Positions 4,121-61,544 are shown, counted from the first letter of the stretch. The stretch is DNA of 64,000 bases from Minisyncoccia bacterium (GCA_041742075.1 JBGSJJ010000013.1:1801-65800), one strand, 5' to 3'. Notes: generated by a model not told the origin, from the letters alone. Program-made: numbers and translations.

Positions 4121-4286
4121 AACGTAGGTTTGAGCATTGATAAATATCGAACTAGTATACAAGAGTGTGGGGCTGAGAAAAAGAAAAAGCCCCGAAGGTG
4201 GGGCCTGGTCAGCTGGTGACCATGAAAGGTTCGCTCTGTGGAGCAGTGCCACTTACCGTGGTTGCTCGCCGATGTCGGTGTCGGGT

Positions 4287-4421
4287 TCAGCAGATGTCCC
4301 AGCCGTCGTGGCAGCGGATGTCGCCGCCTTCCTCGAGCTTGCCGCTGCCGTGTTCGCCATGCTCGTGCGCGCCGTCGTAGCCGAGGTGCGTGCCGGTCGG
4401 GTCGTGGTTCTTCGTCACCAT
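4287..4421 (-). CDS. small His/Gly/Asp-rich protein (44 aa): MVTKNHDPTGTHLGYDGAHEHGEHGSGKLEEGGDIRCHDGWDIC
   Basis: Strong RBS (AAGGAG, 6 nt spacer). Upstream candidate promoter TTGCAA-16nt-TAGTAT. About 65% GC in a 45% GC neighbourhood. It is below the 60-aa cut-off of the ORF track. Confidence 0.4.
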   Translation of the reverse strand: MVTKNHDPTGTHLGYDGAHEHGEHGSGKLEEGGDIRCHDGWDIC

Positions 4422-4546
4422 CAGTGCTCTCCTTCTAGGATGAGCGCTCTCGGAACAGCCGAGCTCTGCCCAGACGTTGGGGGATACTACATACTCAGAC
4501 TTTATTTATACTAGCGTGAAACTATAGATTTGCAAACATCCGTGTA

Positions 4547-4583
4547 GAGAAAAGAGCGGTCACTTATGACCGCTCTTTTCTTT
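4547..4583. terminator. terminator hairpin (aaaagagcggtca / tgaccgctctttt)
   Basis: 13-bp stem plus T-run, 3-prime of minus gene 4627-5097. Confidence 0.7.
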
Positions 4584-4626
4584 ACATTTGTATATGAGCC
4601 AATCAATTGCTCATCTTGAAAACAAC

Positions 4627-5298: not shown

Positions 5299-5332
5299 CA
5301 GTCCACCAACGAGGGTGGATATTGCTCATGTA

Positions 5333-6163
5333 CTACAAGATGAACTCGTCAAAAATTGCCATGGAGGGCTCAACGAAGGCGCTGTAGCCTCCCTTGAACA
5401 TGTACCCTGCAAAGTCCGCTTCGACGTGGACAATTTCACCGTTTTCACCCTGGAACCAGAGTTCATCCAGAGAAATTGTGTGGACCTTCATGTGCGAAAG
5501 GTAGAAATGCGGATCTTTTGCATACGACCATGAAACGAGCTCGACGTCGCCCAGTTCACGGAAGTCAAAACGATCGCCTTCTTCCATGTCGAAGTCTTGG
5601 ATCGTAACCGAAGCCCCGGCCTTGACTTTGAACACATCGGAACCCTGACCACCCCAGCCCTGATCGCCCTCACTCATGAGCAAGGAATCATTGCCTTCGT
5701 TGCCATACAGTAGGTCACGACCCTTCCCGCCAACAAGGTCGTCTCGCCCGGCACCGCCCCGCAAGAGGTCGTTACCAGCTCGACCATAGAGAGTGTCGGA
5801 ACCCTGACCACCGGTCAGATTGTCCCCGCTACTGGTTCCTCGTAAATCGAGGTCGACCACGACCCGTTCAAAGGTAGCGGTTCTAACTTCGCGCACGAGA
5901 TAATCAGCGGCATCACTTTGGTTCGGTCGCAGGGTAGTGACAACAGGATCGCCACCACCTTTACTCCCATAGGCTTCAAGCTGGTACATCATCTCTTCCC
6001 GCAAATGCGGAGTGTTGATGATGGTCTCTCGGTCAAGCTCATTTGGATCACTACTGACCGCCGGGATGTTATCGAGCGGTCCATCGTCCTGCCTGGGAGG
6101 TTGCGTGATCGAGCGATAGACGCCCACAACACCAGACCAAAGTGTACTTAGAGGATTAGCCAT
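5333..6163 (-). CDS. RTX (hemolysin-type calcium-binding, GGxGxDxL nonapeptide) repeat protein
   Basis: LTGGQGSDTLYGRAGNDLLRGGAGRDDLVGGKGRDLLYGNEGNDSLL is a run of tandem RTX nonapeptides. No N-terminal signal peptide. GC-rich gene. Confidence 0.75.
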   Translation of the reverse strand: MANPLSTLWSGVVGVYRSITQPPRQDDGPLDNIPAVSSDPNELDRETIINTPHLREEMMYQLEAYGSKGGGDPVVTTLRPNQSDAADYLVREVRTATFERVVVDLDLRGTSSGDNLTGGQGSDTLYGRAGNDLLRGGAGRDDLVGGKGRDLLYGNEGNDSLLMSEGDQGWGGQGSDVFKVKAGASVTIQDFDMEEGDRFDFRELGDVELVSWSYAKDPHFYLSHMKVHTISLDELWFQGENGEIVHVEADFAGYMFKGGYSAFVEPSMAIFDEFIL

Positions 6164-6332
6164 GTCTTAGTTTCCTTAGGTTGAGCCTCGCGCCCTTCCC
6201 AGAGAAACCTACGTCTCCACTCGTACTAAACATTTTCCCCCGTACGAGCAGGTAATACTTATAACATAAAAAATAGCGCAGTCAAGGGAATTCCCCGACT
6301 GCGCCGTGAGCTCACTTGAGCACGTTGATGAA

Positions 6333-6941
6333 CTAGAACATGAGGTCGGCCGGTTCCTGAATCAGCCGAGCGTCTGCAAAAAGCGACTCGACAAATGCTT
6401 CGCCTCTCACTTCAGAGACACCACCGTTCTTATCTTCGAAAATCATTCGATCGAACAGACCATTGCCGTTGGTATCGAGAAGTCTACTCCTTTCGAGCTT
6501 AGACCCCGGTTTAAAAAAGAAAGTATCACCGACATCAGCATGGAATACGTCCCGCTCGCCAGACCTCGGCTCAAAGACACACGTGTCGTCACCCAGACCA
6601 CCGAAGATGGTGTCACTCCCGCCGTCACCGAAGAAGATGTCCTTACCCAGACCACCGAAAAGACGATCGTTACCTCCCCCGCCGTAGATTTCGTCATCGC
6701 CAGCGTCACCAAGAAGATTGTCGTTGCCGCTACCGCCCTGGAGACGGTCATTTCCGAAACCACCATAAAGGCGGTCGTTGCCTCGATTACCGAAGAGAAA
6801 ATCAACGCCATCTTCGCCATAGAGGGTATCGTCTGCACCTCCACCATAGAGGGTGTCGTCGCCGACCCTACCGAAGACAGTGTCGTCTCCTCCCCTGGCT
6901 CGGAAGAAGTCGTCTCGACTGGTGCCAATGATCGTGGCCAT
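6333..6941 (-). CDS. RTX calcium-binding repeat protein (second copy)
   Basis: About 12 consecutive GxGxDxL repeats (GGDDTVFGRVGDDTLYGGGADDTLYGEDGVDFLFGNRGNDRLYGGFGNDRLQGGSGNDNLLGDAGDDEIYGGGGNDRLFGG...). Its upstream leader resembles that of 5333-6163. Confidence 0.75.
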   Translation of the reverse strand: MATIIGTSRDDFFRARGGDDTVFGRVGDDTLYGGGADDTLYGEDGVDFLFGNRGNDRLYGGFGNDRLQGGSGNDNLLGDAGDDEIYGGGGNDRLFGGLGKDIFFGDGGSDTIFGGLGDDTCVFEPRSGERDVFHADVGDTFFFKPGSKLERSRLLDTNGNGLFDRMIFEDKNGGVSEVRGEAFVESLFADARLIQEPADLMF

Positions 6942-7211
6942 GTCTTATCCCTTCGTTTGAGCGCCCATTGCGCCGTGCAGGATAGTACCTTACATTTTAA
7001 AAAAGTCCATAATTAGAGGTCCGTATAGTGAAAATATAGCTTTGTCTTTGACTGAGAGAATCACCTTGCACGGATAGGGCGGAGCTCCCACAAGACGCCA
7101 AGCGTCATTTCTCCTTGCGAAGTCGAAAATACTGAGCGTCGACATAAAGAAAAAGGCGTGGCCGAGGGGTGTTACCCTCGCCCACGCCATGGAACCGAAG
7201 TTCGCTCTGGA

Positions 7212-7997
7212 TCAGACTGCTGTCGCCAGATTGACGACGTTGATGCACTCTGCCTCGACCTTCTTGAGACGGCTTGCGCCCTTCTCAAGAAGACCCAGGA
7301 TGTAGCCTCCCTGGTTGGGGAGCTCCGTTGCCACCTGCGCGAGACCCTCTTTGGGTCCGAGCTGAAGCAGTGCGCGAGTCTCCGTCGGTGAGAAAATCGG
7401 CGCGAGGATGCGCTGACCTCCTACCAGGAAGATGCCAATCCGCTTCGACTCCGGCCGAGTCAGCACTTCCTTGGTCGAAGCGACGGCCGTGACCGCCGTG
7501 ACCGGAGCCACGGGGACGGAACGATTGGACTGTCCGCCTTCCTGCTCCAGCATGACCGGGGTCACTCTGGCGGAACGCTTGGGCTGTCCGCCTTTCTTCT
7601 CGACCACGAAGTGCTCGAGTGCCTCCTCCCACTCTCCCGATTCGGGATTCAGAGAGAAGAGGACGCAGGGCGTCCCTTCTTCCAAACACTCCCACTCAGA
7701 GCCGGAGACCGGAAGGCCCTTCCAGACCTTGCTGTCACTGTCCCGTACGTAGACCGGCTCGCGTGAACGAATCAGTTGCCGACGGATTTCACGGGCCGCT
7801 TTCTTGTCCGCGACCCGTTCTTCGCTGGCGCGCCGCTCTTCGAAGAGCTCAGTGGCCGATTTGGCCACCATGATGGACTCACGATAGAGCGAGCGCACCT
7901 TGGCGACTGGACCTCTCGGACCAATCAAGTCAATCACGAGCTCGTAACGCTCGCCGACGACCAGATCGAGTTCGGGAGGAATGCCCTTTTCGTGCAC
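7212..7997 (-). CDS. hypothetical protein (GC-rich; GTG start), in the same frame as the upstream cold-shock-domain ORF and separated from it only by TGA
   Basis: Long open frame with an internal approximate repeat (EKKGGQPKRSARVTP / EQEGGQSNRSVPVAP). It may be the C-terminal part of a disrupted or read-through gene. Confidence 0.4.
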   Translation of the reverse strand: MHEKGIPPELDLVVGERYELVIDLIGPRGPVAKVRSLYRESIMVAKSATELFEERRASEERVADKKAAREIRRQLIRSREPVYVRDSDSKVWKGLPVSGSEWECLEEGTPCVLFSLNPESGEWEEALEHFVVEKKGGQPKRSARVTPVMLEQEGGQSNRSVPVAPVTAVTAVASTKEVLTRPESKRIGIFLVGGQRILAPIFSPTETRALLQLGPKEGLAQVATELPNQGGYILGLLEKGASRLKKVEAECINVVNLATAV

Positions 7998-8033
7998 GAA
8001 GAGATCGCGTCCGTTCGAGCGACTGAAGAAGCC

Positions 8034-8516
8034 TCAGGTCGGCATCTTTGTATCGAAGCCACACTTGTACGTGGCGATGATGATGTCGCCGACCTTGATT
8101 TGACCAATGCGATTGGTCTTCTCGGGATCTTCGTGCTCGATGTCCGGCAGGCGAACCAGCTCAGGCCGACGCACCTTGATGCGTCTGGATTTCGCGGGCA
8201 CAGTTTTTGCCGGGGTCGCTCCTTCCGCCACCGTGGCGAGCTTGTCGCCGATACGGTGGATAGCAACGGCCTTGCCTTTGCCGTCGTCGTCGAGATCGTA
8301 GTCGATTTCGGCCATGACTCCCGGCGCCATATCGGCCGTCGTGAAGCCGAATTTCGCCAGCGTCGTCTCGTGGACAAACCCGTTGGGCATGCCCCAGAGC
8401 GTGAAAAAGCCGAAGCCTTTGCCCGCATTGAAGAATTTGACGACGGCGCTGATGTTGGTGAAATCAGCGACGGCCTGTTCCTGGTCGTTGTTTCCGACGT
8501 GAAAAGCTGCGTTCAT
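8034..8516 (-). CDS. cold-shock domain (CspA-like) protein with C-terminal extension
   Basis: VKFFNAGKGFGFF is the canonical CSD RNP1 motif. The ORF ends at a TGA that is in frame with ORF 7212-7997. Confidence 0.65.
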   Translation of the reverse strand: MNAAFHVGNNDQEQAVADFTNISAVVKFFNAGKGFGFFTLWGMPNGFVHETTLAKFGFTTADMAPGVMAEIDYDLDDDGKGKAVAIHRIGDKLATVAEGATPAKTVPAKSRRIKVRRPELVRLPDIEHEDPEKTNRIGQIKVGDIIIATYKCGFDTKMPT

Positions 8517-8615
8517 CGCTTCGGTCTCCCTGTGAGCCTACGAGTGTGCCATTACACCATGTAACGAACTCCACTTTTACTATATTAGCACACTTTATAG
8601 TAAAAGTCAATATTA

Positions 8616-21355: not shown

Positions 21356-21447
21356 CCATAGTACGTTACTTCAGTTACAGATAGGTGGAGGGAATTATTC
21401 CCGAAACCATAACCACGACCACCATACTTCTAAGGAGGGACTAAAAA

Positions 21448-21609
21448 ATGCCATCACCAAGAAGGCGTAACGACGAGGACGACGAGGTCTTTCTCGACCC
21501 CGATCCGGCAGAGGAAGGACTGCCGAAGCGGAGCGAACTCAATTTTGAACCGACCTCCTTGCGGGAGGTCACAAGAGACGGTACGTTCCTTGAGGCCTGG
21601 GAGAGCTGA
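21448..21609 (+). CDS. small acidic hypothetical protein (53 aa)
   Basis: Strong RBS TAAGGAGGG. GC-rich. Ends at a TGA that is immediately followed, in frame, by the next ORF. Confidence 0.35.
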   Translation: MPSPRRRNDEDDEVFLDPDPAEEGLPKRSELNFEPTSLREVTRDGTFLEAWES

Positions 21610-21804
21610 ATGTCACTCTACCTAGTCATGAGCTCCCAACTGGGAACCAACCCTGTCGCGAAGCTAAAGGAAATCTGTCGCGACCCGGCAGACCTCCCCT
21701 TTCCGGGACCGTTCCTCACAGCCGAAGACGTCGGCGATGAGAACTTCGCCAATAGCCTGCGCCAGGCGTTCTACCCTGCACCGGAAGACCACCACACCAG
21801 CTAG
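21610..21804 (+). CDS. small hypothetical protein (64 aa), same frame as 21448-21609
   Basis: An ATG directly abuts the preceding TGA. The stop lies inside a hairpin. Confidence 0.3.
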   Translation: MSLYLVMSSQLGTNPVAKLKEICRDPADLPFPGPFLTAEDVGDENFANSLRQAFYPAPEDHHTS

Positions 21805-25734: not shown

Positions 25735-27141
25735 TCATGCTGCGAGTGCGCATGAGGTACCACGAGCACACTTCTCGGCAGCAGTCTTGCCATAGGATGT
25801 CAACACGACCGGCAGACCGAGCAGTCCACCGAGTCGATCAGCATAGGCTTCACCCCGCTCAGAGACTGGAGTGTAACTTGCTTCAGCCTTCCGTAAGACC
25901 TCACCGAGTAAGAGCTGGTGCGGCTTGTTCTCAGCGTCGAACTTCGGCCGGAGCGCAGTTACGTAGTCAACGTCGGAGCGCGAGCGTGGCTCGATGATAA
26001 GTGCGGCCACTTCAGTGTTGGTGAGTGCACCGGCCGGTACTCGATAACGAGTTGCAAGCATCGGTGACGGCACCGTATCGAGACGATCAAGGTGTGTGAC
26101 CACAAGCGAGTCAACTCCTTCACTCGCCATAAGCGCATAGCGCGTAAGTGGAACATCGAACCAGCCGACCCGAAACCCTTCCTGCCACGTGCTGTAGCGA
26201 TTGTGCTCATCAGGAAGCTGTGTCGTCAGTGACATGTCTTCGGTTGGAAATGGTCCGGCGCCGTGACGAGTGCTGTATGCGCGCACCACGCCGTAGCGAG
26301 AAACCGGCTTGTCATAGCCGATATCCGCGAGGAGCGTGTTGGCATTCTTCGCCGTCGTCGTGCTCCAGGTGGTGTACGGATGGAAGCCGTGCCGCTCATC
26401 AAGCAGCACCCCTTGTGCCCCTTCGAAGATGAGTGGCTTGGTTTCGGCCAGCCGCTTGAGTGTCCGCACGGAAGCGATAGTGAGACGCTTGCCGATTTCG
26501 TAGAGAGCGGAAGCAATCAGCTCCGGCGCCCGGTAGTCGTAGAGGTGCTGTAATTCCTCACCGAGGTATCCGTACGATCTGAGCTCGTTGAAGTACGGCG
26601 AGAACTCGACATACTTCAGTTCCTGAAGAGTCTTGAGACGCACGAGAAGCGTCGAGCGCGAGCGTAGATCAGCAACCCGAATCGTGAGCTCGGGATGGGC
26701 GATGGAGTCCGACATCGTTTCGCCGATACCCATGCCACAGCTACCGTGACGACCATGACCCCGGAGCATTTCCCGCAGACGATTGCCGGCTTTCTGGAAC
26801 GGCGTCACGACGATCGCGTCGCCGTCAATCGCGATTCGAGCGAACGGTTCCGTGACACCGAGCTGCTCGAGACGTCGTGCCTCCTCCTTGAGGGCGAACG
26901 GGTCAACAAGCATGAAACGTGAGAGGAACGTCCGCACACCCAAAACGAAGGTGCCGCTCCCAAACTGGGAGAAGGTGTGGTGACGGCCGGTTGCAGTGTG
27001 CACGTTGTGCGCGGCCTGTGCACCGCCGTTGTAACGAACAACGACCGCGCCTTCCATTTGGCGAGCTAGATAGTCAACAGTCGTACCCTTGCCCGCGTCG
27101 CCAAACCCGAGGTCGGTCACGATAGTAGCTCTTTGTTCCAT
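25735..27141 (-). CDS. adenylosuccinate synthetase (PurA) family protein
   Basis: P-loop [17 protein letters not shown]...[12 protein letters not shown], then [37 protein letters not shown] and [15 protein letters not shown]. These match PurA motifs ([55 protein letters not shown]). RBS AAGGAA. Confidence 0.7.
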   Translation of the reverse strand: [468 protein letters not shown]

Positions 27142-27217: not shown

Positions 27218-28231
27218 TCAGAGCCGACTCACACCACCTGAGGCACGTCGCTTCGCGAGTGTGCCGCCAGTGCGAGCAGCTGTTCCGGCTGCCACCGACT
27301 TGTTGCCGATAGGCACGAGCGCGTTCTTGACGGCGCTCGCGGCTGCACCAGAGAGTCCGATGTCAGCCACGACACGGTCGGCGTCGTACGAGCTCTCGAG
27401 CATGTGGATGATGCCAGCGATGATCTCGCAGACCAGGCTCGAGTCCTCGACCATGACGAGTCGCTCTCCGAGGAGCTGCCGCCAGCGGTCGTGGATGTCC
27501 ATGCGATCAGGATAGCTGCCATCGAGTGCGAACAGGTGGAAGATGTTCCACTGCTCGCTCGCCCGAGACAGAAGCGACTCGACCGTTTCGTCACCCTCGA
27601 CGTCGACGCCGAAGATCTTCTGCACGTCGGCTCCCGTAACGGTCGGCCACGGCATCTCGTCGCCCATCGTGAAGAGGTAGCCCTTCTTGCCGCGCTTCTC
27701 GAACGCATCGCTCGCGGTGTGGTTGGCGGCGAAGTAGTAGGCGAGCCCGTAGGACTCCTTCACCTGTCCGCCGCCGCCCTCGAGGATGATGGCGCGCAGC
27801 TGATCGTCGAAGCGGTTGTCCGATTCGAACTGACCGACCTGGAACGGATAGCGGTCGCACGTCGAGTCGCCGACGGCGCCGACCAGCACCTGTGGGTCCG
27901 AGAGACCAGCCTTGTCGATGATCACGTCCATCAAGCTCGTGAGCTTCTCCTGCAAGACGCGCGGGATGCGCCCCATCGAACCAGTGACATCGAACAGCAT
28001 GGCGATCGGAATCGAGTTCGGGTGTTCGTCGCTGTCGCGGCTCTCGCGCACGCCGTAGTGGTAGCGCGCCGGGTCAGGGTTCTTGAAGCCCTTCGGGTCG
28101 AGCGAGGTATGAATGCCGCTCGCCTTGCCGGACCGAACCTTGACCGTATAGTCGAAGTCGTCGATACCACTTGCGCGGCGCGACGTAGCTGCAGCACTGT
28201 AGATGCTGCTATCCCAAGTACCACCACCCAT
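27218..28231 (-). CDS. von Willebrand factor A (vWA) domain protein
   Basis: MIDAS motif IAMLFDVTGSMG (DxSGS). RBS AGGAGG. Confidence 0.65.
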   Translation of the reverse strand: MGGGTWDSSIYSAAATSRRASGIDDFDYTVKVRSGKASGIHTSLDPKGFKNPDPARYHYGVRESRDSDEHPNSIPIAMLFDVTGSMGRIPRVLQEKLTSLMDVIIDKAGLSDPQVLVGAVGDSTCDRYPFQVGQFESDNRFDDQLRAIILEGGGGQVKESYGLAYYFAANHTASDAFEKRGKKGYLFTMGDEMPWPTVTGADVQKIFGVDVEGDETVESLLSRASEQWNIFHLFALDGSYPDRMDIHDRWRQLLGERLVMVEDSSLVCEIIAGIIHMLESSYDADRVVADIGLSGAAASAVKNALVPIGNKSVAAGTAARTGGTLAKRRASGGVSRL

Positions 28232-28264: not shown

Positions 28265-29386
28265 TCACGTGTTCGGCATAATAAGTGGCCGATACGTTCG
28301 TCCCCAGTGGCCTCGCACCGCATCAGTGAACTGACGCAGTACAAGTGCCCCATCGTGTGCACGTCGCTTCGGGTCTGCCACGAGGCAGCCCTTCACCACT
28401 TGCACGATGTCACTCGGAACCTGGCTCGGGAATCGATCGCGAGCCACGTCGCCGCCGGTGAGATAGAGAAACGCCTTGCCGGCCATGTAGAGGTCGGTTT
28501 GGTGCGTCGGTACTTCACGGGCGAATACTTCAGGCGGGTACCAGTCTCGGTAGCGGTCGATGACCGTTGTTAACCGAGCCTTCCTGACGTGTGGTTCGAT
28601 GACCGCATGCGCCCAACCCAAGTGGAGGGGCTCATGGGTCTTCGGATGCACCAGCACGTGCTCCGGCACTAGTGCGCCATTGACGACACCGAGCATCGCT
28701 GCCGCCAGAGTCTGACCGAGTACCCGTCGCCAGACCCAGGCGGCTGCCTCTTGTGGCAAGCCATCCTGGTAGGCAGTACGGATATCCTTGAGCGAAACGA
28801 AACCTGGTCGCTCACGGTAGACATTGGCGCGGTAGCGAATGTTGCCCGCTTCAAGCACCAAAAAAGTGTCAAGAAGTTCAGGCAGAAACGGTGCCAAGAC
28901 CGAAGCCTTGCCGGTCGCCCGTGACAGCACCGCCACCTCATGTTCGAGGTATTGGTTCTGGCTCGGCTCAGCCGCTACCTTCACCACAACAGCCGTGCCA
29001 TCTGCAGCGACCCCGCGATAGAGAAGCGAAAAGTCACCCTCTCTAAACGGTGTCGCGGCGCAGGTATAGCTCATCGTCGAGCCAGTGAAGCTGATAGTCG
29101 GTCCAGTTGTAGAACCAGCCGAAGCAAACGGCTCTTCGTACCGACCGGCGGCCAGTGCCGCTTTTGCACGTTCGTGCAGGTCGATGATACGTGTGAGCAC
29201 ATCGCCAGCCAGCGCTTGTTCAGGACCTGCTCGGTCGGGGTGCGAGGTGCGAGCAAGGTAGACGAACTTCTTCTTGAGTTGCCGTTCCTGCTCGCGCTTG
29301 GTACCCAGAGGGAGCGAACCAAAGACGTCACTGTAGCGAGTGGCGCCCTTAAGCTGTGAGTCGAAAGCCGCCAGTGCGCTCTGCAT
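28265..29386 (-). CDS. J-domain (DnaJ-like HPD motif) fused to a protein-kinase-like domain
   Basis: N-terminal LKKKFVYLARTSHPDRAG is a J-domain helix II-III with HPD. Downstream come VVVKVAAEP (VAIK-like) and a GALVPEHVLVHP catalytic-loop-like segment. RBS AAGGAG. Confidence 0.55.
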   Translation of the reverse strand: MQSALAAFDSQLKGATRYSDVFGSLPLGTKREQERQLKKKFVYLARTSHPDRAGPEQALAGDVLTRIIDLHERAKAALAAGRYEEPFASAGSTTGPTISFTGSTMSYTCAATPFREGDFSLLYRGVAADGTAVVVKVAAEPSQNQYLEHEVAVLSRATGKASVLAPFLPELLDTFLVLEAGNIRYRANVYRERPGFVSLKDIRTAYQDGLPQEAAAWVWRRVLGQTLAAAMLGVVNGALVPEHVLVHPKTHEPLHLGWAHAVIEPHVRKARLTTVIDRYRDWYPPEVFAREVPTHQTDLYMAGKAFLYLTGGDVARDRFPSQVPSDIVQVVKGCLVADPKRRAHDGALVLRQFTDAVRGHWGRTYRPLIMPNT

Positions 29387-29516: not shown

Positions 29517-29549
29517 TGTCCTTATTGTCAAATATACAATAAGGACATT
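29517..29549. promoter_or_regulatory. perfect palindrome atgtccttattg-N9-caataaggacat between the NrtR-like gene and the kinase-vWA-PurA operon
   Basis: 12-bp arms overlapping the stop of the NrtR-like gene. No T-run. Candidate operator and/or terminator. Confidence 0.4.
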
Positions 29550-42812: not shown

Positions 42813-42817
42813 TTGTC

Positions 42818-45103
42818 CTAGACGTACCACTCGCTCCCGTACTTGATTTCGAGCGACATGATTTGTCCGTTCTTGAAGACAGCGCCGGTTGTTGCCGTCC
42901 AGTCTGACCCGGTGATCGGACCTCTGAAGTAGTGTCCGTAGGCTCCTTTGGCGGTACCGACACGCCAGACATTGAGAAGCTTCTCGCCGGTATGGCCGTG
43001 ACCCACGATGTACTGCATCTTGTTGCCGTAAACCGTGAACGCTCCGAGACTCCGCGTATTGTTTCCCTTCGGCGCAACATCGCCATGTGAGGACAAACAG
43101 ACGCGGTACTTACCGGTCGTCTTCGCGTAGCGTTCGTCTTGACGACCAAGCGCCGTCAACCACGGATACCGTCCGTTAAACAAGACTTCCAGCGCTTCTG
43201 GCGAGACAGCTTTCCGTTTCTCACGGCTTGTTTTGGCCTCCTCGACCCGCCGTGTCGTTTCTTCTGCCATCAGGTAGCAGAGCTTGCTACCGAAGGCGTA
43301 GTTGCGAGAGTCTTCGCGCCAGAGGCACTTCTGAGCCCATTCCGTGAGCCACGCCGGATGGTTCGCAGCGACAATCACAATCTCAGCGTTCGGGAGGATT
43401 TTGTGGTGTTCGACCAACCTCTTCTCAAACGCATCGACTTCTTCTTCCGCCAAGTCAAACCCCAGACCAGCCAGGGCCGCACTCCGACTCATCTGCTTGA
43501 GCCAGAACGGGCAAGCTGGCGAGTCCGTATCGAGGCCATCGTGACGATACACTTCGTCCGGCTTCAGGGTTGGCATAATGCCGTGCTTGCCCCAGAGCGC
43601 TTTCGCAATCTCTGGGTCAGTTGAGGCGTCATGCCAATCCGGTTCAGCCACCGCCACAATGTCGTTCGGCCGATGTTCACTGCCATCGGCAGTATACAGC
43701 CGTGCGCCACCGTGTTTGGGGTCAATGTCGTACACCTCACCCGTCGCCTCATCAAGCATGATGAGTGGACGAGCGAACCACTTACGCTTACCTTTGAAGC
43801 TAATCACCCAAGCAGCAATCTCAACGTCGTTTTGTGTCACGACGCCTCGCGTGCTCTCATGACCGAGCGCATCGACGTTCAAGACCAGGCGAGTAGCCGT
43901 ACCTGCCGTCATGATGTGACGGGTTCCATCTTCACCCTGCAAAGGCAGATGCTTGAACTCGATATTGGTCCCGGCGATGATGCGCGAAAGACCCGACTTC
44001 ATACGCGCTACCCGACCCGAAAGTTTGGTGTAGAGGGTGGGAAGCAAGAACGAACTCACATCGAGAAGCAGTCGACGTTCTTCATAGACGAAGTCCTCAA
44101 AGAGCATAGAGTCTTCGAGTTCCGGCGCGAAGTTGCTCTCCAAGCGACCATCATGCGTTTTGATTGGACCAAAGCGAAGCGGGAGTCCAACAAACGTGTA
44201 GCCAAGTTCATCAGCAATCTTCTTAAACGTTTGGACTGCTGGGATGAAGGAGGCACCAATCTGCGCCGACATGACGACCAAACCTTTGGCCTGTCGCAGT
44301 TGCTTGCGAGAAACCCGGAATCGCTCGATCTGCTCGAGCGCGGCCGGGTGCATGGGAACAATTCGTCCCGTCGTCGGATGCCTGCGACTCAGACGCACAA
44401 GCTGGCGTTCGAACTCAGGATTCTTTTTCCGATAGGAGTCGTACTTACTCCGTAAACGGTCGATACCCTTGAGCGTCAGCATTTCGCCAAGCTCATGCTT
44501 CATGGCCTCGATGAGGTCATGTCCCGAGGTAAGTTTCTTGTTGTTCCAGACCCGAGCGAATTTGGCAAACTGACGGACTTTCTTCGGCACTTCTTGTTCT
44601 TTAGGCTTCTGACCGCCCCACAAGCCAACTTCCTCACGATGCTTGGCGATGAAGTTGCTGAGCATCGAAATAGTGACTTGTGGAAAATTGCCACGCTTCG
44701 GGTCACGCAGTACTTCGAGTAATCGGGTTTTGAGCCGTGCGAGATCATTTTTCTTATAATACCGCCGTGACTCTTCGTAGGCCTGCTTGATGATACGCAC
44801 GTGCACTTCGTTCCAAATACCGGCCGTACCAGCCACATCGTTGGCAGGAATCGAGAGTGTGAACGTGAGATGCTTCGGGTCGGTAATTGGTTCCGGTATG
44901 CCATCCGGAAAAAGCGTACGCCGACGTTGGTTGACTGCGTTTGCAGATAGCCTAAGTCGGTGACCGAGACGCTTGAGCTCTTCATTAAGATCGCGAGCTA
45001 TCTCAGTGAGACCATGTCCGAAACGAGTCCGCTCACTGATGAACGTATTCATCTCGAATGAGAGGCCGCTCTTTACCTTGGCCGCATTTTTAAGCTTACT
45101 CAT
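42818..45103 (-). CDS. large hypothetical protein (761 aa) on a GC-rich segment
   Basis: Long uninterrupted ORF with sensible amino-acid composition, whereas the antisense ORFs are Arg-rich artefacts. A GHGHTG motif near the C-terminus. No confident family assignment. Confidence 0.5.
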   Translation of the reverse strand: MSKLKNAAKVKSGLSFEMNTFISERTRFGHGLTEIARDLNEELKRLGHRLRLSANAVNQRRRTLFPDGIPEPITDPKHLTFTLSIPANDVAGTAGIWNEVHVRIIKQAYEESRRYYKKNDLARLKTRLLEVLRDPKRGNFPQVTISMLSNFIAKHREEVGLWGGQKPKEQEVPKKVRQFAKFARVWNNKKLTSGHDLIEAMKHELGEMLTLKGIDRLRSKYDSYRKKNPEFERQLVRLSRRHPTTGRIVPMHPAALEQIERFRVSRKQLRQAKGLVVMSAQIGASFIPAVQTFKKIADELGYTFVGLPLRFGPIKTHDGRLESNFAPELEDSMLFEDFVYEERRLLLDVSSFLLPTLYTKLSGRVARMKSGLSRIIAGTNIEFKHLPLQGEDGTRHIMTAGTATRLVLNVDALGHESTRGVVTQNDVEIAAWVISFKGKRKWFARPLIMLDEATGEVYDIDPKHGGARLYTADGSEHRPNDIVAVAEPDWHDASTDPEIAKALWGKHGIMPTLKPDEVYRHDGLDTDSPACPFWLKQMSRSAALAGLGFDLAEEEVDAFEKRLVEHHKILPNAEIVIVAANHPAWLTEWAQKCLWREDSRNYAFGSKLCYLMAEETTRRVEEAKTSREKRKAVSPEALEVLFNGRYPWLTALGRQDERYAKTTGKYRVCLSSHGDVAPKGNNTRSLGAFTVYGNKMQYIVGHGHTGEKLLNVWRVGTAKGAYGHYFRGPITGSDWTATTGAVFKNGQIMSLEIKYGSEWYV

Positions 45104-45308
45104 TGGGGGATTCCTTCTCTTCTGGCACGGCTATAGCCGGCGCGAGGGTAGCGGTCGGACGGTTCGGAAGAACCAAGATCCTACCACCTTTGTTGCGGGG
45201 TGCGTTCACGACCGGAGCTTTTGGGGCTCCGGGGCGATGATTTGTATTGGCTGGCGTCTTTGTGAATGGTGGTCGACTTACGCCGTCACCATCACGCTTG
45301 TTTGGCAT
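45096..45308 (-). CDS. small basic Pro-rich protein (70 aa), translationally coupled to the 761-aa gene
   Basis: RBS AAGGTG. Its stop overlaps the ATG of 42818-45103 (ATGAGTAA). Confidence 0.4.
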   Translation of the reverse strand: MPNKRDGDGVSRPPFTKTPANTNHRPGAPKAPVVNAPRNKGGRILVLPNRPTATLAPAIAVPEEKESPNE

Positions 45309-45486
45309 GGCGTTCACCTTTTGGTATGTATATCTCAACGTAAGGGAGCGAGACGTCGAGATAGGGTTGACAAGGAACACAAAGAACATGAAGACGGTAC
45401 TGGCCGTACTTCTCTTAGGTTCTGCTTCAACTATGCCTTATTTGTGTAAATTACTCAACCTGTACACGTGTATACATATATGTCAA

Positions 45487-52081: not shown

Positions 52082-52084
52082 GAT

Positions 52085-52666: not shown

Positions 52667-52734
52667 AGAGTACCAATTTTTTCAAGTTCTGCAATCTAAG
52701 GCTCACGCTAAAGATGTGGTATGCTGAAAACGCA

Positions 52735-57058: not shown

Positions 57059-57454
57059 TTACCAGATGATGAAGAGTTGTTCACCTCCGACTTGCTTTTC
57101 GCGTGCCTCTTCTCCGGTTAAGATACCGGCTGGCGTCGAAAGGATCATGTGACCCTTACCAAATTTTACTGGATAAATATCGGTGACCTTAATGTAGAGA
57201 CGTCGTCCCGGCTTTGAGATACGCTTTACACCACGAATCGTGTGTACCTCCCCTTCAGCGTACTTAAGCGTAACCGCAAGGTCAGCTCCTACTTTTTTGC
57301 TTTGCTTCTCGACTCCAGAAACATAGCCTGCTTCATGCAACTTCTTAGCAATTGCATGCTTCAACTTTGAGTATGGAAGGGTAACTGTGCTTTTGCCAGC
57401 CATGCCTCCATTCTTAAGTTGGATAATGAAATCTCCTACTGTATCGCTTACCAT
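57059..57454 (-). CDS. rpsH: 30S ribosomal protein S8
   Basis: MVSDTVGDFIIQLKNG... Confidence 0.9.
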   Translation of the reverse strand: MVSDTVGDFIIQLKNGGMAGKSTVTLPYSKLKHAIAKKLHEAGYVSGVEKQSKKVGADLAVTLKYAEGEVHTIRGVKRISKPGRRLYIKVTDIYPVKFGKGHMILSTPAGILTGEEAREKQVGGEQLFIIW

Positions 57455-57633
57455 GATGATTTCTTTATGCCTGGTATAGTGCCTTCATTTGCTCCTTCAC
57501 GGAAACAAATACGACAAAGGTCGAAGTCTCGCATGTAGCCTCGCTTACGACCACACTGGTTGCAGCGTCGTACCACTTGAGACTTGAACTTTGGTGTACG
57601 CATTGCGCGTATCAAGATTGACTTTCGTGCCAC
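57448..57633 (-). CDS. rpsZ: 30S ribosomal protein S14 type Z (zinc-ribbon form)
   Basis: 61 aa with CNQCGR...CRIC. Confidence 0.9.
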   Translation of the reverse strand: MARKSILIRAMRTPKFKSQVVRRCNQCGRKRGYMRDFDLCRICFREGANEGTIPGIKKSSW

Positions 57634-58016
57634 GTTTTTTGTCTTATGGGTGGGACAGTATCATGTAGAAACCATGACTTGTCCCCTAATAATCCGACCA
57701 AAACTGGTGGTTTTGGTCTTCGGCGTATACACAAACGAGCGCCTTCCGAGTTAAAACAATAGTTTTATTGCTCGGCGCGTCTCACTCACAACAGATTGTT
57801 TAGAATCAGGAGAGGTTTTGCGTATCTCGCTTCGGGGGCAATAGTACCAGAATACGGAGAAATAACAAGGTCTTACTGCGCTGGAGTAGAGCATCACTCC
57901 ACCTGACGTATCTTCATAGTTTTATATGCTTCATAGTTGAAGTAAGTATAAGAAAAGCCCCGGCACATAATGCGCCGGAGCTGAGACTCACCGAGATGAG
58001 CAAGGAACCTGAAGAA

Positions 58017-59114
58017 CTAGAGGTTCGAGAGCGAGCCGATGATGCGCTCCATCACCAGCGCGCTGGGCATCGGCATCACCTTGTTGATGGAGGCGGGGAT
58101 GCCGGTCACCGTGAGCACGGTTGGGTCGGATTCCACACCGACGAAGCCGGAACGAAACCCATGTTGGCTCCAAGCAATGGCCTGGATGCGCGGATCTCGA
58201 AACGCTTCAGTGAGTCGTTCGCACTCGGGCTTGAGCACGATGAGCGGGTGAGAGGAAAAGATGGTTGGTTCTGGGTACAGGATGTTTATCTGCTCCTTGA
58301 TGACCGTCTGATACTCAGGATGCTTAAGGATGAACTCCGGCAACTGACTCTCGTAGCCGACGATCATCGGCCGAGCGCCCATTCCTTGGTTGAGGAAGTT
58401 CTCGAAGATATCCCCCGAACCCTCTTCCATGAAACCCATGGAGCGAAAGTAGGCGACGAGCTGCGGAAGGACGTTGTCCACCGTCGTTTCGTCGATGACC
58501 TCGCCGTTGTTCAGCATGCCGGCGAGAAGTGCCGCCCACATGTTGCCCGAGTTCGACTTCCTCGGGTCGCTGGAGAAGACCTTGATCGAACCGTAGAGGT
58601 CGAGACCGAGGGATTCCCATTTCTCCTTTGCCGCCGCGAGTTTGATGAGCTCTTGTGGCTTGATGATATAGTGGGTGTTCTCCCGCTCTTCAACAATCCC
58701 TGCCTTCGTGAGCGCGGCGGTAACCGGCGCCCATGTGTAGAAGACGATGGGACTGTTGAAGATGACCTGGTCAGAGATGACGGATTTGCCACTCCTGCGT
58801 GCCAATTCCACCGCCACTTGGTTGCTCGGCCAGATGCAGTGCTGGTCGGTCGTGTTGTCGGTTGTCGACATCGCGATCGAACCGCGTCGCGTGCCGTTGA
58901 GTTGGATTTTGTAGTCCTCGTCGAGGATGGCGAGAACCTCCGGGTTGTTCAGAAACCCCTCTTTCTCGCCGCCATAGTAGAGGTTAAGCGTGAGCGGAGC
59001 GAGTCGCTCGGGGACCTTGCGCTTGAGGCTATCGAAGTCGACCATCGTCAGTATAAGAACGACGACTGCGACCACGATCAGCACTGCGAGGCCCATAAGT
59101 TTCCTCAGGTTCAT
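58017..59114 (-). CDS. membrane-anchored solute-binding-protein-like protein
   Basis: N-terminal TM helix, then a roughly 330-aa periplasmic-binding-protein-like domain. Confidence 0.4.
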   Translation of the reverse strand: MNLRKLMGLAVLIVVAVVVLILTMVDFDSLKRKVPERLAPLTLNLYYGGEKEGFLNNPEVLAILDEDYKIQLNGTRRGSIAMSTTDNTTDQHCIWPSNQVAVELARRSGKSVISDQVIFNSPIVFYTWAPVTAALTKAGIVEERENTHYIIKPQELIKLAAAKEKWESLGLDLYGSIKVFSSDPRKSNSGNMWAALLAGMLNNGEVIDETTVDNVLPQLVAYFRSMGFMEEGSGDIFENFLNQGMGARPMIVGYESQLPEFILKHPEYQTVIKEQINILYPEPTIFSSHPLIVLKPECERLTEAFRDPRIQAIAWSQHGFRSGFVGVESDPTVLTVTGIPASINKVMPMPSALVMERIIGSLSNL

Positions 59115-59725
59115 CGTTCGTATCTCCTTTTGTCATCAATCAGCTCGCCCGCAACATCAGCGGTGCGAGTGAGTTGTTCCAGGTTGGTTTCGAGGCACTC
59201 ATCGCGCATTTGCCGAATGCGAGTCCGGAAGGTATCAATGATGCGCCGTCGAACCGCGTCGAGTTTGATCACGGTGTCTGTACCCCGACTATGCCGCCAA
59301 AGACGGACGTACTCGGTAGAAACCGTGGGTACATCGGCGAAATCGACGATGCGGGTTTTCACAATCCGTATCCCTCGGGGATACTCGTTGCAAAAACGAA
59401 CAACCGCGTAGAGGTCTTCGGCCATTTCGGCGAATACGGGCTGCATCGTCGGGTCGCCGTCCTCGGCGGACAGTTTCTTAAGACCATCTGCGATGGTCTG
59501 TAGGTTTGCGAGCAACGCTTTGAAGCGGTCGCGTCGCATACCAGCATCCCATAGAAATTCAAGATTCGCTGGCGGCTTCACATCGATGATGACCGCTACT
59601 GCCAAGAAGGCAATAACAGCCAGAATCAGTGCGAGCCACCAAACCAGCTGCACCGGCAGAAATAGGACCAAGAAGATCACAACTCCGACCGCTGCAGCGA
59701 TGAGCTGTCGCATGGTTTCTGTCAT
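59111..59725 (-). CDS. 2-TM membrane protein with cytoplasmic helical domain (XpaC-like architecture)
   Basis: Two N-terminal TM helices then about 140 aa predicted helical. The architecture resembles the XpaC family. Homology not verified. Confidence 0.35.
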   Translation of the reverse strand: MTETMRQLIAAAVGVVIFLVLFLPVQLVWWLALILAVIAFLAVAVIIDVKPPANLEFLWDAGMRRDRFKALLANLQTIADGLKKLSAEDGDPTMQPVFAEMAEDLYAVVRFCNEYPRGIRIVKTRIVDFADVPTVSTEYVRLWRHSRGTDTVIKLDAVRRRIIDTFRTRIRQMRDECLETNLEQLTRTADVAGELIDDKRRYER

Positions 59726-59779
59726 AGCTCTAACTCCGCGTGAGGGGAAGGGTGCGCGGCCTCAGGCCGCACTTAGCGT

Positions 59780-61411
59780 TTAGTTGTACCCCTTGACACT
59801 GCGAAGCGTCGCCGGGAGGTCACCCTTGCTGTCGAAGTAGCGTCCAACCGTCAGTGTGGTCAGCTGCTGCAGCTCGGTAGTATCGGCACCGCCGAAGGCG
59901 ATGGCGTTGATTGGCACATCCGACATGAACGAGTACCCCGAAAGGAATCGTTCAAAGTCTTGCGCTTTCATGCCAGCATTCGTTTCGCCATCAGTCATCG
60001 CGTTGATAGCGACGAGGTAGTTGTCGAGCCGGCCTGAGGCTGCGTACGGAGCGATTTCGCGCACCGCTTGAGCCAAGCCTTCATACAACGCTGTTGCAGA
60101 TCCCAGATCGATGGCTTGGGTGTTATTGAGCAGACGAGCGACCTTAGTCGGCTCGTTGCCCTCAACCACCCACACGTCTTGCACAGAGCCCGCGAACGTG
60201 ACGACGATAGTGACGTCGTTCGGTCCGAGTTGGAGCAGGTTGGCAGCGGCAGTTTCGGGATCGAGAAGGTTTTCCATCGCCTTCTTTAGCCCCTCGATGC
60301 CACGTCCAGACATACTGCTCGACGCGTCGAGCACCCATGCTGTCAATGACGGTTTGCGAAGACCGGTCTGGTACAGGTTGAGTGCGGTCTCAATGACCTC
60401 CTGAGTAGGCACCGGCACCGACGCAATGATGCGCTTGGTGTCGATACCCCAGTCGGGGTTGAAGACCGTCGGATCGACCGTGCCAGCGTTAAGGCCGATA
60501 AGGCCCGTACGCCGACCAGTCGCCTTGATGGCGTCTTGTGTCTCAGGCGTAAGCAAGTGAGCCTGAAGCTCGAGGAAGAGTGTTTCCTTTGCTTCGATCC
60601 CATGATCCACGTAGCCGAGCGGGCTATCAGAGACCATGATGGCGTCGCGTGGGTAGACTGCACAGAGCGGTTCGTGGCCACGGTTGATGAGACCGGGCAC
60701 GAACTTCCCTTTCTCGTTCCAGCCGAGATTGGCTTCGATGATCATGCTCTCGTAGTTGAACATAGCATCGAAACGATGCGGGTTCTCGACGACGAGAGTG
60801 CGCAACCAGCCCGAGCTTCCTGCGCTCCGGTCAACGGTCGCAAGGAAGCGCTTCAGATCAGCCTGCACTTGCCGATCCTCGAGTTGCTCAAGAGTCAGTA
60901 CATCTGGACTGCCTGAGAGGGCATAGAGCGCTCCGATGTAGGCCGAAGCGCCGCTATTGGACTGCGTCGCCGAAGTCATCGTGAGCGTGAATGCCCCTTG
61001 GTCCGCGGCCGCGATGATGTCGGCCATGGTGACGTCGGTATCGCTTATCCAGCCGAGTCGGTTGGCGATTGAGCAGTTAAGACCGAGCACAACCGGCGAA
61101 CGCATGATCGACGCCGTGTGCGCGACCGTATTGTTGCGGTCGCCGAGGGCGATCCAAAGCTGGTTCGCCGGCCACACCGCGTCGTACGCACAGCCGGTCT
61201 CGGCCTGCAGGCAGCGGGCGATGTCCACACTACCGAGATAGTCGATGTCAATCGTGATACCTTTCTCTTCAGCGAACGCCGTGATGATTGGCTCGAGGCC
61301 TTCGTTCTCGGATCCCGAGACGATGGTGAATGTTCGTTGCGGTTGTGCCTCATCGCAGGCGGCGAGGGCACAGAGCCCAGCGACTAGGCCACAGAGTACG
61401 TGTTTGGACAT
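59780..61411 (-). CDS. lipoprotein with N-terminal binding-protein-like region and C-terminal vWA domain
   Basis: Lipobox LCALAAC. MIDAS motif WVLDASSSMSG. The start was moved to MSKHVLCG at 61411. Confidence 0.55.
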   Translation of the reverse strand: MSKHVLCGLVAGLCALAACDEAQPQRTFTIVSGSENEGLEPIITAFAEEKGITIDIDYLGSVDIARCLQAETGCAYDAVWPANQLWIALGDRNNTVAHTASIMRSPVVLGLNCSIANRLGWISDTDVTMADIIAAADQGAFTLTMTSATQSNSGASAYIGALYALSGSPDVLTLEQLEDRQVQADLKRFLATVDRSAGSSGWLRTLVVENPHRFDAMFNYESMIIEANLGWNEKGKFVPGLINRGHEPLCAVYPRDAIMVSDSPLGYVDHGIEAKETLFLELQAHLLTPETQDAIKATGRRTGLIGLNAGTVDPTVFNPDWGIDTKRIIASVPVPTQEVIETALNLYQTGLRKPSLTAWVLDASSSMSGRGIEGLKKAMENLLDPETAAANLLQLGPNDVTIVVTFAGSVQDVWVVEGNEPTKVARLLNNTQAIDLGSATALYEGLAQAVREIAPYAASGRLDNYLVAINAMTDGETNAGMKAQDFERFLSGYSFMSDVPINAIAFGGADTTELQQLTTLTVGRYFDSKGDLPATLRSVKGYN

Positions 61412-61544
61412 TGGGTATTTCTCTCTTCTCTTGTTGAATTGTGAAGGACAGTTCGGCTTGTTTTGCAACCAAAACCCCCTAATTTATTAGCACAAAAAAT
61501 GTGAAAAGTCAATAGATTACTAAATATTTTAAATAACTAACAAC

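Follow-up and report, generated by a model that had tools for sequence, protein, structure and literature searches.

A 64,000-nucleotide stretch of a contig from a Minisyncoccia bacterium (GCA_041742075.1 JBGSJJ010000013.1:1801-65800, hereafter the window) carries six GC-rich islets set among genes of a bacterium of the Candidate Phyla Radiation (CPR, or Patescibacteria). These islets are real GC-rich patches bounded by genes, and not an assembly chimera. With a probability of about two in three, they represent a heterogeneous and mostly old accessory mosaic, in which the high GC content is long-standing and maintained in the two islets whose history is resolved, islets 4 and 6. The chromosome, of a Paceibacteria/Kaiserbacteria-like type with about 46% GC, would carry gene-bounded accessory modules of different origin: a vertically inherited, CPR-wide module in islet 4, a phage-type gene in islet 5, and a foreign cassette of proteobacterial type in islet 6. 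The six islets are located in the window as follows:

Islet 1, 4200-4440, GC 0.643
Islet 2, 5300-8560, GC 0.556
Islet 3, 21400-21900, GC 0.557
Islet 4, 25700-29400, GC 0.597
Islet 5, 42800-45350, GC 0.545
Islet 6, 57996-61470, GC 0.573

The window as a whole has 48.7% GC, and the sequence outside the six islets 0.464. An initial annotation, made from the sequence alone, had described this mosaic and assigned about 60-65% GC to the islet DNA. The computed composition is indeed not uniform (0.545-0.643 in the islets vs 0.464); the range given first fits islet 1 and is overstated for most islets. The GC content of 1-kb windows has a standard deviation of 0.047, compared with 0.016 expected from binomial sampling, and the islet edges are abrupt, with changes of 0.15-0.2 in GC within 150 bp, at gene ends. 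The 53 backbone genes have a GC content at third codon positions (GC3) of 0.450±0.056, with a maximum of 0.582. That of the islet genes spans 0.55-0.91 (z = 1.8-8.3 vs the backbone), from 0.55 in RTX genes to 0.81 in a gene for a von Willebrand factor A (vWA) protein and 0.91 in a 44-aa open reading frame (ORF). The GC-normalised dinucleotide distance, delta*, amounts to 95-136 for the four large islets (2, 4, 5 and 6), against 35-45±10-13 for backbone windows of the same size, the maxima of which are 58-83. Islets 1 and 3 are outliers in GC and GC3.

The GC content at second codon positions (GC2) of the islet genes is close to that of the backbone, and the excess is found chiefly at third and four-fold degenerate sites, which rules out amino-acid composition as its main cause. 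Translational selection for NNC codons is also ruled out, since both C and G are more frequent at third positions of the islet genes and the ribosomal-protein genes are without shift. The long Arg-rich ORFs that had been noticed on the antisense strand are real (10-13% Arg), e.g., at 27404-28573 and 57996-59411. They lie opposite genes with homologues and are, therefore, by-products of the high GC3. The gene content described initially also stands: two RTX proteins, a PurA-like/vWA/kinase-like operon, a lipoprotein cassette combining substrate-binding protein (SBP) and vWA domains, and a 761-aa protein.

A metagenome assembly or binning artefact, in which foreign fragments were joined to a CPR contig, is hardly credible. 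The source is an 80-kb contig of a metagenome-assembled genome (MAG), and the compositional jumps do resemble those of chimeras. However, islets 1, 2, 4, 5, and 6, with their junctions, are reproduced in Logan per-run contigs from three runs (SRR28170465, SRR28170467, and SRR28170474), and the contigs checked by blastn (L001, L091, and L092) are 100% identical to the window. In these contigs, islets 1, 2, 5, and 6 are flanked by backbone sequence on either side, L092 spanning both ends of islet 5, and the backbone flanks of islet 4 measure about 1 kb and about 100 bp. A single contig, L228, runs from the L16 to the L5 gene, through the islet-6 cassette, and on from S8 to SecY, and another one, L231, harbors RecG, islet 2, islet 1, the malic enzyme gene, and ClpP. 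Furthermore, the same arrangements are observed in related genomes.

No integrase or transposase domain was found in the islet proteins by Pfam, NCBIfam, and PHROG profile scans, and PADLOC returned no defence-system match among them. The large islets are not abutted by the tRNA-Ile or transfer-messenger RNA (tmRNA) genes of the window; islet 3 is located about 700 bp upstream of the tmRNA gene.

The lineage of the backbone is given by ribosomal protein L5, whose gene also defines the insertion slot described below:

61606..62196, minus strand, rplE (L5), backbone anchor

The best matches of L5 (72-84% identical) are to MAGs labelled Kaiserbacteria, Paceibacterota, Parcubacteria, or Patescibacteria. 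Identities range from 51 to 84% with 45 MAGs, almost all labelled Patescibacteria, and reach at most 54% with other phyla. Some of the matching third-party annotation (TPA) MAGs are titled "uncultured Candidatus Saccharibacteria", which are taken to be generic labels. No L30 gene is found between S5 and L15 (54897-56001), where there is a gap of 10 bp only, consistent with a CPR ribosome. By these sequence comparisons, the backbone appears to be of the Paceibacteria/Kaiserbacteria type within Patescibacteria and not Saccharibacteria, the window being devoid of the rRNA gene that a formal classification would use. The CPR assignment of the initial annotation is thus retained, and its Saccharibacteria-like part is not.

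Islet 4 is composed of three co-directional genes, with a regulator gene ahead of them on the same strand:

29548..30219, minus strand, NrtR-type regulator with Nudix and winged helix-turn-helix domains (Pfam NrtR_WHD and NUDIX), GC3 0.438, backbone composition
28265..29386, minus strand, islet 4a, 373-aa kinase-like protein, PHROG phrog_3043 "kinase" with E = 5.7e-25, GC3 0.631
27218..28231, minus strand, islet 4b, 337-aa protein of predicted vWA fold, DxTGS motif of the metal-ion-dependent adhesion site (MIDAS) type at residues 81-85, GC3 0.805 (z = 6.4)
25735..27141, minus strand, islet 4c, 468-aa PurA-like enzyme, Pfam Adenylsucc_synt with 222 bits, GC3 0.638

This module is a long-term resident of CPR genomes. 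Homologues of 4b number 6566, and the named ones among the best 120 of these 6566, at 57-75% identity, all belong to Patescibacteria. A foreign origin of islet 4 had been proposed initially; best hits in the lineage of the core genes are the outcome that the proposal itself had set against it. Kerfeldbacteria and further CPR genomes have the trio with unchanged gene order. In three relatives (L082, L093, and L099), it is located between xfp-ackA and smpB-ftsH, as in the window, with identities of 48-73% for the module and 45-85% for the flanking core genes. The NrtR gene adjoins the module in many CPR and high-GC loci, and its GC3 is without excess over the flanks across 12 CPR loci. A neighbor-joining (NJ) tree built from 124 sequences places the CPR-type proteins in a single clade that does not arise from within the high-GC cluster. 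The "CPR-type" label of unlabelled metagenome loci is based on their clade, their gene context, and an identity of at least 56%.

The GC content of the module exceeds that of its flanks in 21 of the 22 CPR-type loci, by 0.060 on average. In the non-CPR loci, the difference is +0.01, a value based on whole-region GC, as GC3 is biased in these high-GC loci, where longest-ORF calling fails. The vWA gene has a higher GC3 than the mean of its flanks in 19 of 20 loci (p = 1e-5). At four-fold sites of identical residues, the window and the three syntenic relatives share the same base in 28-49% of cases, compared with 26-34% expected from base composition, and sharing in the flanking core genes is similar. 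The GC content at four-fold sites (GC4) nevertheless remains at 0.56-0.82 in the module of all four syntenic genomes, against 0.41-0.47 in core genes. As these sites are near saturation and GC4 is still high, something keeps the module genes GC-rich.

Outside CPR, the trio has been found in soil contigs of 67-76% GC, at 41-49% identity and with the GC content of their flanks, in Rhodococcus and Tsukamurella megaplasmids (44-46%), and in 201 Bixzunavirus mycobacteriophages (42%), where its members are annotated as "serine/threonine kinase" and "PurA-like adenylosuccinate synthetase". The module is also present in Rhizobium phages, beside NAD-salvage genes, and in Vibrio phages. An alignment-based scan detected it in 53 IMG/VR contigs, two of which (L173 and L174) are at CPR-type identity; a single-protein scan of viral contigs with the vWA protein returned no match. 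This distribution suggests that the islet-4 module was present in an early CPR ancestor, with a deeper ancestry common to the actinobacterial and large-phage versions. The actinobacterial link of islet 4 would then be only a weak, distant, and ancient one.

The closest known arrangement is that of the Bixzunavirus (cluster C) mycobacteriophages, exemplified by gp251-gp254 of phage Caravan, where three homologous families occur in the same order. A 339-aa hypothetical protein of this phage is 42% identical to the vWA protein of the window, and the Caravan homologue of 4a is annotated as a serine/threonine kinase. In contrast to the phage trio, which has an extra small ORF between the vWA and PurA-like genes, that of the window is chromosomal, follows an NrtR gene, and belongs to a separate CPR clade (57-75% identity).

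The N-terminus of 4a carries an HPD motif, read from the sequence, and may be a J-domain; no Pfam or PDB sequence match supports the domain assignments of this protein. The 4b protein has no Pfam match, the VWA models remaining below threshold, and a PDB sequence search with the profile of its family returned nothing significant. Its AlphaFold2 (AF2) model (pLDDT 88.5) is matched by Foldseek to integrin beta-I, vWF-A (including vWF-A3), and Ku80 vWA domains with E = 8e-7 to 4e-5 and a probability of 1.00. Residues D81, T83, and S85 of its D81-V-T83-G-S85 motif are invariant in 32 homologues. Judged by its modelled fold, 4b is a predicted vWA domain.

The 4c protein shares the fold family of PurA (Escherichia coli, 1ADE) and of phage PurZ. 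Its GDAGKG, AAH, and GAQG motifs align with GDEGKG, AGH, and GAQG of the E. coli-type enzyme, with conservation of the P-loop D13 and K16, the catalytic H41, the GAQG motif with the Gln224 that binds inosine monophosphate (IMP), and GAGPFPTE. Unlike PurA and PurZ, it scores far below the NCBIfam cut-offs (NF002223, 177 vs 402 bits; TIGR00184, 150 vs 396; PurZ, 48 vs 300). Its guanine-specificity motif is changed from TKLD to THLD, and the aspartate-binding loop (Thr300, Thr301, Arg303, and Arg305) is replaced, TTGRRRRTGW becoming TWQEGFRVGW. The alignment thus identifies 4c as a putative divergent paralogue of adenylosuccinate synthetase, and the loss of the aspartate loop makes a different amine substrate likely; the enzyme probably ligates something other than aspartate.

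In Rhizobium phage RHph_TM3_3_6 (L227), the vWA and PurA-like genes are near genes for phosphoribosyltransferase-like and NMNAT/Nudix proteins, and, in the CPR locus L085, they are near those for NAMPT, Nudix, and ADP-ribosylglycohydrolase proteins. The gene neighbourhoods hint at a module tied to NAD/ADP-ribose metabolism, which fits the NrtR neighbour. Literature searches returned no description of the function of the trio in its CPR or phage version.

Islet 6 has a different history. It is also composed of three co-directional genes, inserted between the ribosomal-protein genes rplE and rpsN and flanked by hairpins:

61543..61581, minus strand, hairpin with a 17-bp stem from the scan for terminator-like structures, directly after rplE, upstream edge of the slot
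59780..61468, minus strand, islet 6a, SBP-vWA lipoprotein, Pfam SBP_bac_11 and VWA, LAAC lipobox, GC3 0.694 (543 aa in the database version, which starts at 61411)
59111..59725, minus strand, islet 6b, 204-aa membrane protein, weakly XpaC/Halogen_Hydrol-like
58017..59114, minus strand, islet 6c, 365-aa membrane-anchored protein, N-terminus weakly SBP-like, GC3 0.779
57956..57982, minus strand, terminator-like hairpin with a 12-bp stem, directly after the last cassette gene
57448..57633, minus strand, rpsN (Zn-ribbon S14, 61 aa), abutting rpsH, downstream edge of the slot

The match of 6b to Pfam PF10112 (E = 1.6e-4) is below the cut-off, and a match to this family is recorded for its syntenic partners in Thiothrix and in a non-CPR contig of 60% GC (L087). 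The 6c protein has no Pfam match. Its N-terminus aligns with the SBP domain of 6a in a pairwise BLASTP comparison (E = 7e-4), and it is 53-61% identical to the third cassette gene of three non-CPR loci (L087, L088, and L089).

Among 3602 homologues of 6a, the best non-self ones are 62, 60, and 55% identical. All those with a name belong to Pseudomonadota, i.e., Thiothrix, Neomegalonema, Halovulum, Tropicimonas, Ruegeria, and similar genera, including Rhodobacterales. Named relatives outside the core lineage had been anticipated for the islets, and islet 6 conforms to this; the high-GC actinobacterial donor proposed along with it does not agree with these names. The whole cassette is kept in Thiothrix nivea (L089) and in L087, where NiFe-hydrogenase genes accompany it; contig L088 has two of the three genes. 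In Thiothrix and other Pseudomonadota, the three genes have the same order as in the window, with 53-62% protein identity, and the 6a homologue is annotated as "substrate-binding and VWA domain-containing protein". Unlike in the window, the Thiothrix cassette has the GC content of the host and adjoins pstSCAB and phoX, neighbours that suggest phosphate or phosphonate as a candidate ligand of the lipoprotein. Cassette and flank GC in the three non-CPR loci are 0.607/0.597, 0.379/0.379, and 0.576/0.570, i.e., those of the respective hosts, whereas the cassette of the window has 0.573 against 0.464 for the backbone. Genes of an origin foreign to CPR would be expected to show such a contrast. The cassette is absent from all of the 80 L5-centred loci, and a single-protein scan of viral contigs with the SBP-vWA protein returned no match.

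A second CPR genome (contig L233) harbors the same cassette just upstream of rpsN-rpsH, with 54, 31, and 54% identity for the three proteins. The ribosomal genes follow in the order S14-S8-L6-L18-S5, and the proteins S14, S8, L6, and S5 are 72, 65, 69, and 88% identical to those of the window. The GC4 of this second cassette is 0.70-0.72, compared with 0.36-0.40 in the ribosomal-protein genes of the same contig. A 643-aa gene on the opposite strand (L233:4549-6480, GC 0.575), without recorded Pfam match, is located between the cassette and rpsN. For islet 6 as for islet 4, synonymous sites are near saturation relative to the CPR homologues and the GC excess persists, at odds with a recent import. 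Distribution and composition, taken together, suggest that the cassette was horizontally transferred into the CPR clade, not recently, from a proteobacterium-like donor with about 57-60% GC.

By its position, islet 6 splits the spc ribosomal operon. The distance from L5 to S8 is 79-349 bp in 34 non-CPR loci, enough for S14 alone. Among 35 related CPR loci, the L5-to-S14 spacer varies from 25 to 8253 bp, and S14 stays beside S8; rpsN is 62-93% identical at the protein level across these loci and mostly overlaps S8 by a few bases, being otherwise at most 90 bp away. The cargo of this slot is unrelated among relatives and includes a DsbA-like protein, an ORF6N protein, an SBP-OmpA protein with ABC-transporter genes, and proteins without assignment; it may be richer or poorer in GC than its own genome. 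The cassette of the window is found in none of the 35 loci. A clade-wide insertion slot between rplE and rpsN seems to be new. Two examples of its cargo are a 351-aa secreted protein (L020:10529-12304, GC 0.559 vs 0.453) and an insert of 8.4 kb that encodes an SBP-OmpA protein and, probably, ABC transporters (L023:10520-18950, GC 0.51 vs 0.459).

Islet 5 is of a third kind, with a large gene and a small ORF that overlaps its start:

42818..45103, minus strand, islet 5, 761-aa protein, C-terminal ~500 residues resembling T5 A1-like metallophosphoesterase ("DNA transfer protein")
45096..45389, minus strand, 97-aa ORF, called as a gene in Logan contig L091, GC 0.537

A search of 5.8e9 proteins gave just one close homologue of the 761-aa protein, 60% identical, in a different gene context and with a GC content of 0.50 against 0.44 in its flanks. 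An exhaustive HMMER scan of 1.84e9 representatives yielded 188 distant relatives. Residues 252-759 match positions 67-540 of the 542 positions of the A1-like profile phrog_1745 (E = 2.8e-32), and the metal-binding motifs DxH, GD, GNH(D/E), H, GH, and GxH are present, with D489, H491, D522, N581, H582, H673, G674, H702, and H704 invariant or nearly so in 40 relatives. One relative matches Pfam Metallophos, and the N-termini of the relatives carry assorted DNA-binding domains; that of the 761-aa protein is helical and resembles a helix-turn-helix domain by appearance only. Phage matches obtained by tblastn are 22-24% identical, are annotated as "T5 A1-like", "DNA transfer protein", or "phosphodiesterase/nuclease", and originate mostly from phages of proteobacterial hosts. 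Mre11 is the best Foldseek hit of the AF2 model (pLDDT 87), without significance (E = 0.07-0.3); a PDB profile search with the 761-aa family returned nothing significant either, and a single-protein scan of viral contigs with this protein no match.

Phage T5 A1 has been described as a predicted metallophosphatase, necessary and sufficient for host DNA degradation (bioRxiv 10.64898/2026.04.02.716235). Unlike it, the islet-5 gene is chromosomal, encodes a helical N-terminal extension of about 250 residues, and has no other recognised phage gene beside it. Its motifs and profile matches identify islet 5 as a rare gene for a predicted phage-type, T5 A1-like metallophosphoesterase, putatively a nuclease derived from a phage or another mobile element. 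A defined transposon was considered for islet 5 and dropped, the flanking inverted and direct repeats being short and at chance level.

The leftover of a transfer predating the divergences described above should have decayed, which implies that the GC excess is maintained. A gene-specific force would sustain the synonymous GC excess of the modules, and GC-biased gene conversion during repeated homologous exchange of the modules between CPR lineages is the favoured candidate; an association between recombination and GC3 in bacteria has been proposed (PMC4450053). Selection on synonymous sites or repeated xenologous replacement would be alternative causes. The more general proposal that such modules do not ameliorate, holding their synonymous GC 0.2-0.4 above the genome over family- to order-scale divergence, and that they are accompanied by a clade-wide rplE-rpsN landing slot, is a tentative one, somewhat doubtful at present.

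The initial annotation had favoured a high-GC donor, such as the actinobacterial host of a Saccharibacteria-like epibiont. Understood as a series of recent imports with a donor composition not yet ameliorated, this would account for the strongly atypical GC, GC3, and dinucleotide signature, and for the presence of the islet-4 module in the high-GC soil contigs, the actinobacterial megaplasmids, and the mycobacteriophages (41-49% identity). It is nonetheless very unlikely, as the backbone is not Saccharibacteria, the named best matches of islet 4 are all CPR, its synteny in three relatives comes with core-like identities, and the CPR clade falls outside the high-GC cluster of the tree. Every islet-4 relative keeps the GC excess with synonymous sites near saturation. 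The named relatives of islet 6 are Pseudomonadota, the best match reaching only 62%, with a second CPR copy at the same site, and those of islet 5 are phage proteins, mostly of proteobacterial hosts. Taxonomic profiling of islets 4, 5, and 6 yielded no evidence of a recent actinobacterial donor. At the other extreme, the islets might be native genes without any horizontal transfer, their GC content resulting from amino-acid composition or gene-specific codon selection. The RTX genes agree with this, their GC content at first codon positions (GC1) being 0.64 and their GC3 excess marginal (z ~2), as do the lineage-wide and, within the clade, vertical inheritance of islet 4 and the GC content of the vWA gene, which appears buffered to about 0.6 across hosts of very different GC. 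This explanation is improbable all the same: most of the excess comes from third and four-fold sites rather than from GC2, and it does not track high expression, as the ribosomal-protein genes are unshifted. Furthermore, islet 6 is missing from the 35 related slot loci and the 80 L5-centred loci and has named relatives in Pseudomonadota, and, apart from its one close homologue in 5.8e9 proteins, islet 5 is related to phage proteins.

Repeated, recent, and independent acquisitions or xenologous replacements at permissive sites, each with the GC content of its donor and nothing maintained, form another alternative, which is rather unlikely. It draws on the turnover of the rplE-rpsN slot with its unrelated cargo, on the two IMG/VR contigs that carry the islet-4 module at CPR-type identity, and on the existence of CPR genomes with 57-59% GC. 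It also draws on the SBP-vWA protein of the window being closer to that of the non-CPR contig L087 (60%) than to that of the CPR contig L233 (55%). The NJ tree groups the window copy with that of L233 and the unplaced sequence P0123, L087 being their sister, and the bootstrap value of this clade of CPR copies is only 57%, so that the cassette may have been acquired twice independently at the same slot. In addition, the slot is almost empty in relatives closer than L233, such as L002 and L003, which a single old insertion can explain only with subsequent losses; the cassette either entered the slot once and was lost in closer relatives, or was captured more than once. Both points weigh against an old and maintained mosaic, as do several limits of the analysis: the direction of the islet-6 transfer is deduced from distribution and composition only, the trees are NJ trees without model selection, the CPR-type label of unlabelled loci is itself deduced, and module functions are assigned from domains and neighbours. 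On the other side, the islet-4 synteny extends over four genomes with a congruent vWA subtree, the module proteins (49-74% identity) do not exceed the flanking core genes (45-85%), the search of 5.8e9 proteins gave no donor above 62% identity for islet 6 or above 75% for islet 4, and NrtR, a companion of the module in many lineages, has backbone composition. An old accessory mosaic with maintained GC content is preferred.

Genomic islands and horizontal gene transfer from diverse donors have already been reported in Patescibacteria (Gios et al. 2025, mSystems, PMC12455944), and a mosaic of this sort is in itself not new. The islets share with the reported islands the presence of atypical accessory segments in streamlined CPR genomes; the donors of these islands are diverse bacteria and other Patescibacteria, with the involvement of phages. 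In contrast to them, the islets of the window are small (0.2-3.7 kb, one to four genes), lack an integrase or transposase, and are not beside tRNA genes. Two of them occupy the same position in other CPR genomes and keep a GC excess despite near-saturated synonymous divergence, and one is inside the spc ribosomal operon. Old syntenic islets keeping a synonymous GC excess seem to be new, and so does the recognition that the mycobacteriophage kinase-like/vWA/PurA-like trio is conserved as a module in CPR, where the PurA active site is altered.

The remaining islets harbor shorter genes:

4293..4427, minus strand, islet 1, 44-aa His/Gly/Asp-rich ORF (MVTKNHDPTGTHLGYDGAHEHGEHGSGKLEEGGDIRCHDGWDIC), own ribosome-binding site, GC 0.68, GC3 0.91
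5333..6163, minus strand, islet 2a, RTX-repeat protein of 276 aa, Pfam HemolysinCabind with E = 4e-13, GC3 0.570 (z = 2.2)
6333..6941, minus strand, islet 2b, RTX-repeat protein of 202 aa, HemolysinCabind with E = 1.3e-42 in six stretches, GC3 0.552 (z = 1.8)
7212..7997, minus strand, islet 2c, 261-aa orphan, GC3 0.714 (z = 4.7)
8034..8516, minus strand, islet 2d, 160 aa, weak cold-shock-domain-like N-terminus, GC3 0.745 (z = 5.3)
21448..21804, plus strand, islet 3, abutting 53- and 64-aa ORFs between smpB and the tmRNA gene, followed by hairpins, GC3 0.648 and 0.723

The 44-aa gene of islet 1 is called in Logan contig L231 and is followed by a hairpin at about 4175-4205. The RTX genes counted among the islet genes by the initial annotation are present but are marginal outliers in GC3, and their GC1 is raised by the Gly/Asp repeats. 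Plasmid matches of 2a are mostly to Proteobacteria, driven by the repeats and uninformative as to origin. No Type I secretion system (T1SS) genes are found beside the RTX genes, the HlyD/FtsX/ABC set at 12.7-16.2 kb being of the MacAB type. The 2c protein has no Pfam, NCBIfam, PADLOC, or PHROG match and no relative in phages, plasmids, viral contigs, or the collected loci. The matches of 2d to NCBIfam Csp models (E = 4e-5 to 3e-3) are far below the cut-offs, and that to the PHROG "cold shock protein" has E = 3e-4. The ORFs of islets 1 and 3 have no Pfam match, and tblastn searches with islet 1-3 proteins against 3.2 Mb of loci, phages, and plasmids gave nothing beyond the repeat-driven RTX matches. 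Islets 1, 2, and 3 are orphan genes that were probably also acquired.

The backbone genes identified in the window comprise the following:

ClpP-like protein, major facilitator superfamily (MFS) transporter, malic enzyme, RecG, MacAB-type HlyD/FtsX/ABC set, FtsH, and patatin-like protein
SmpB, tmRNA, NrtR-type regulator, YceI, acetate kinase, phosphoketolase, IF3, and L20
Nucleotide kinases, SecY, and the S10/spc ribosomal block

Several other features were observed along this backbone. A tRNA-Ile gene with the anticodon UAU is present at 12059-12133 (minus strand); in most bacteria, AUA is decoded by a lysidine-modified CAU tRNA. Directly after the tmRNA gene, the AT-rich segment 22900-24600 (GC 0.39-0.41, below the backbone) carries a Gp49/HigB-like toxin ORF (23172-23513, plus strand) and ORFs without assignment, and it may be an islet of low GC inserted at the tmRNA gene, a classical integration site. 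A 242-aa protein (31215-31943, plus strand) has weak cohesin and dockerin matches and is also encoded beside ackA in the relative L099. Tandem adenylate-kinase paralogues (51482-52081 and 52085-52666) form, with a cytidylate-kinase-like gene and NDK, a nucleotide-kinase cluster at 51482-53355.

Atypical GC content is routinely read as a sign of recent transfer and used to guess the donors or hosts of episymbiotic CPR bacteria. Here, this reading fails for both resolved islets, 4 and 6, and a host deduced from island composition would be wrong. If the more general proposal of modules that do not ameliorate is true, GC-based island detection in CPR genomes would systematically mistake old residents for recent imports. 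The persisting synonymous GC excess provides a concrete case for opposing GC-biased gene conversion and selection in tiny bacterial genomes. The kinase-like/vWA/PurA-like module, common to CPR, Actinomycetota, and large phages, is widespread and uncharacterised, and the aspartate loop is lost from its PurA-like enzyme. The rplE-rpsN slot, easy to find owing to its universal flanking genes, is usable as a marker of gene flux in Patescibacteria and, under the same proposal, would record the gene flow of an uncultured phylum in a form that can be followed.

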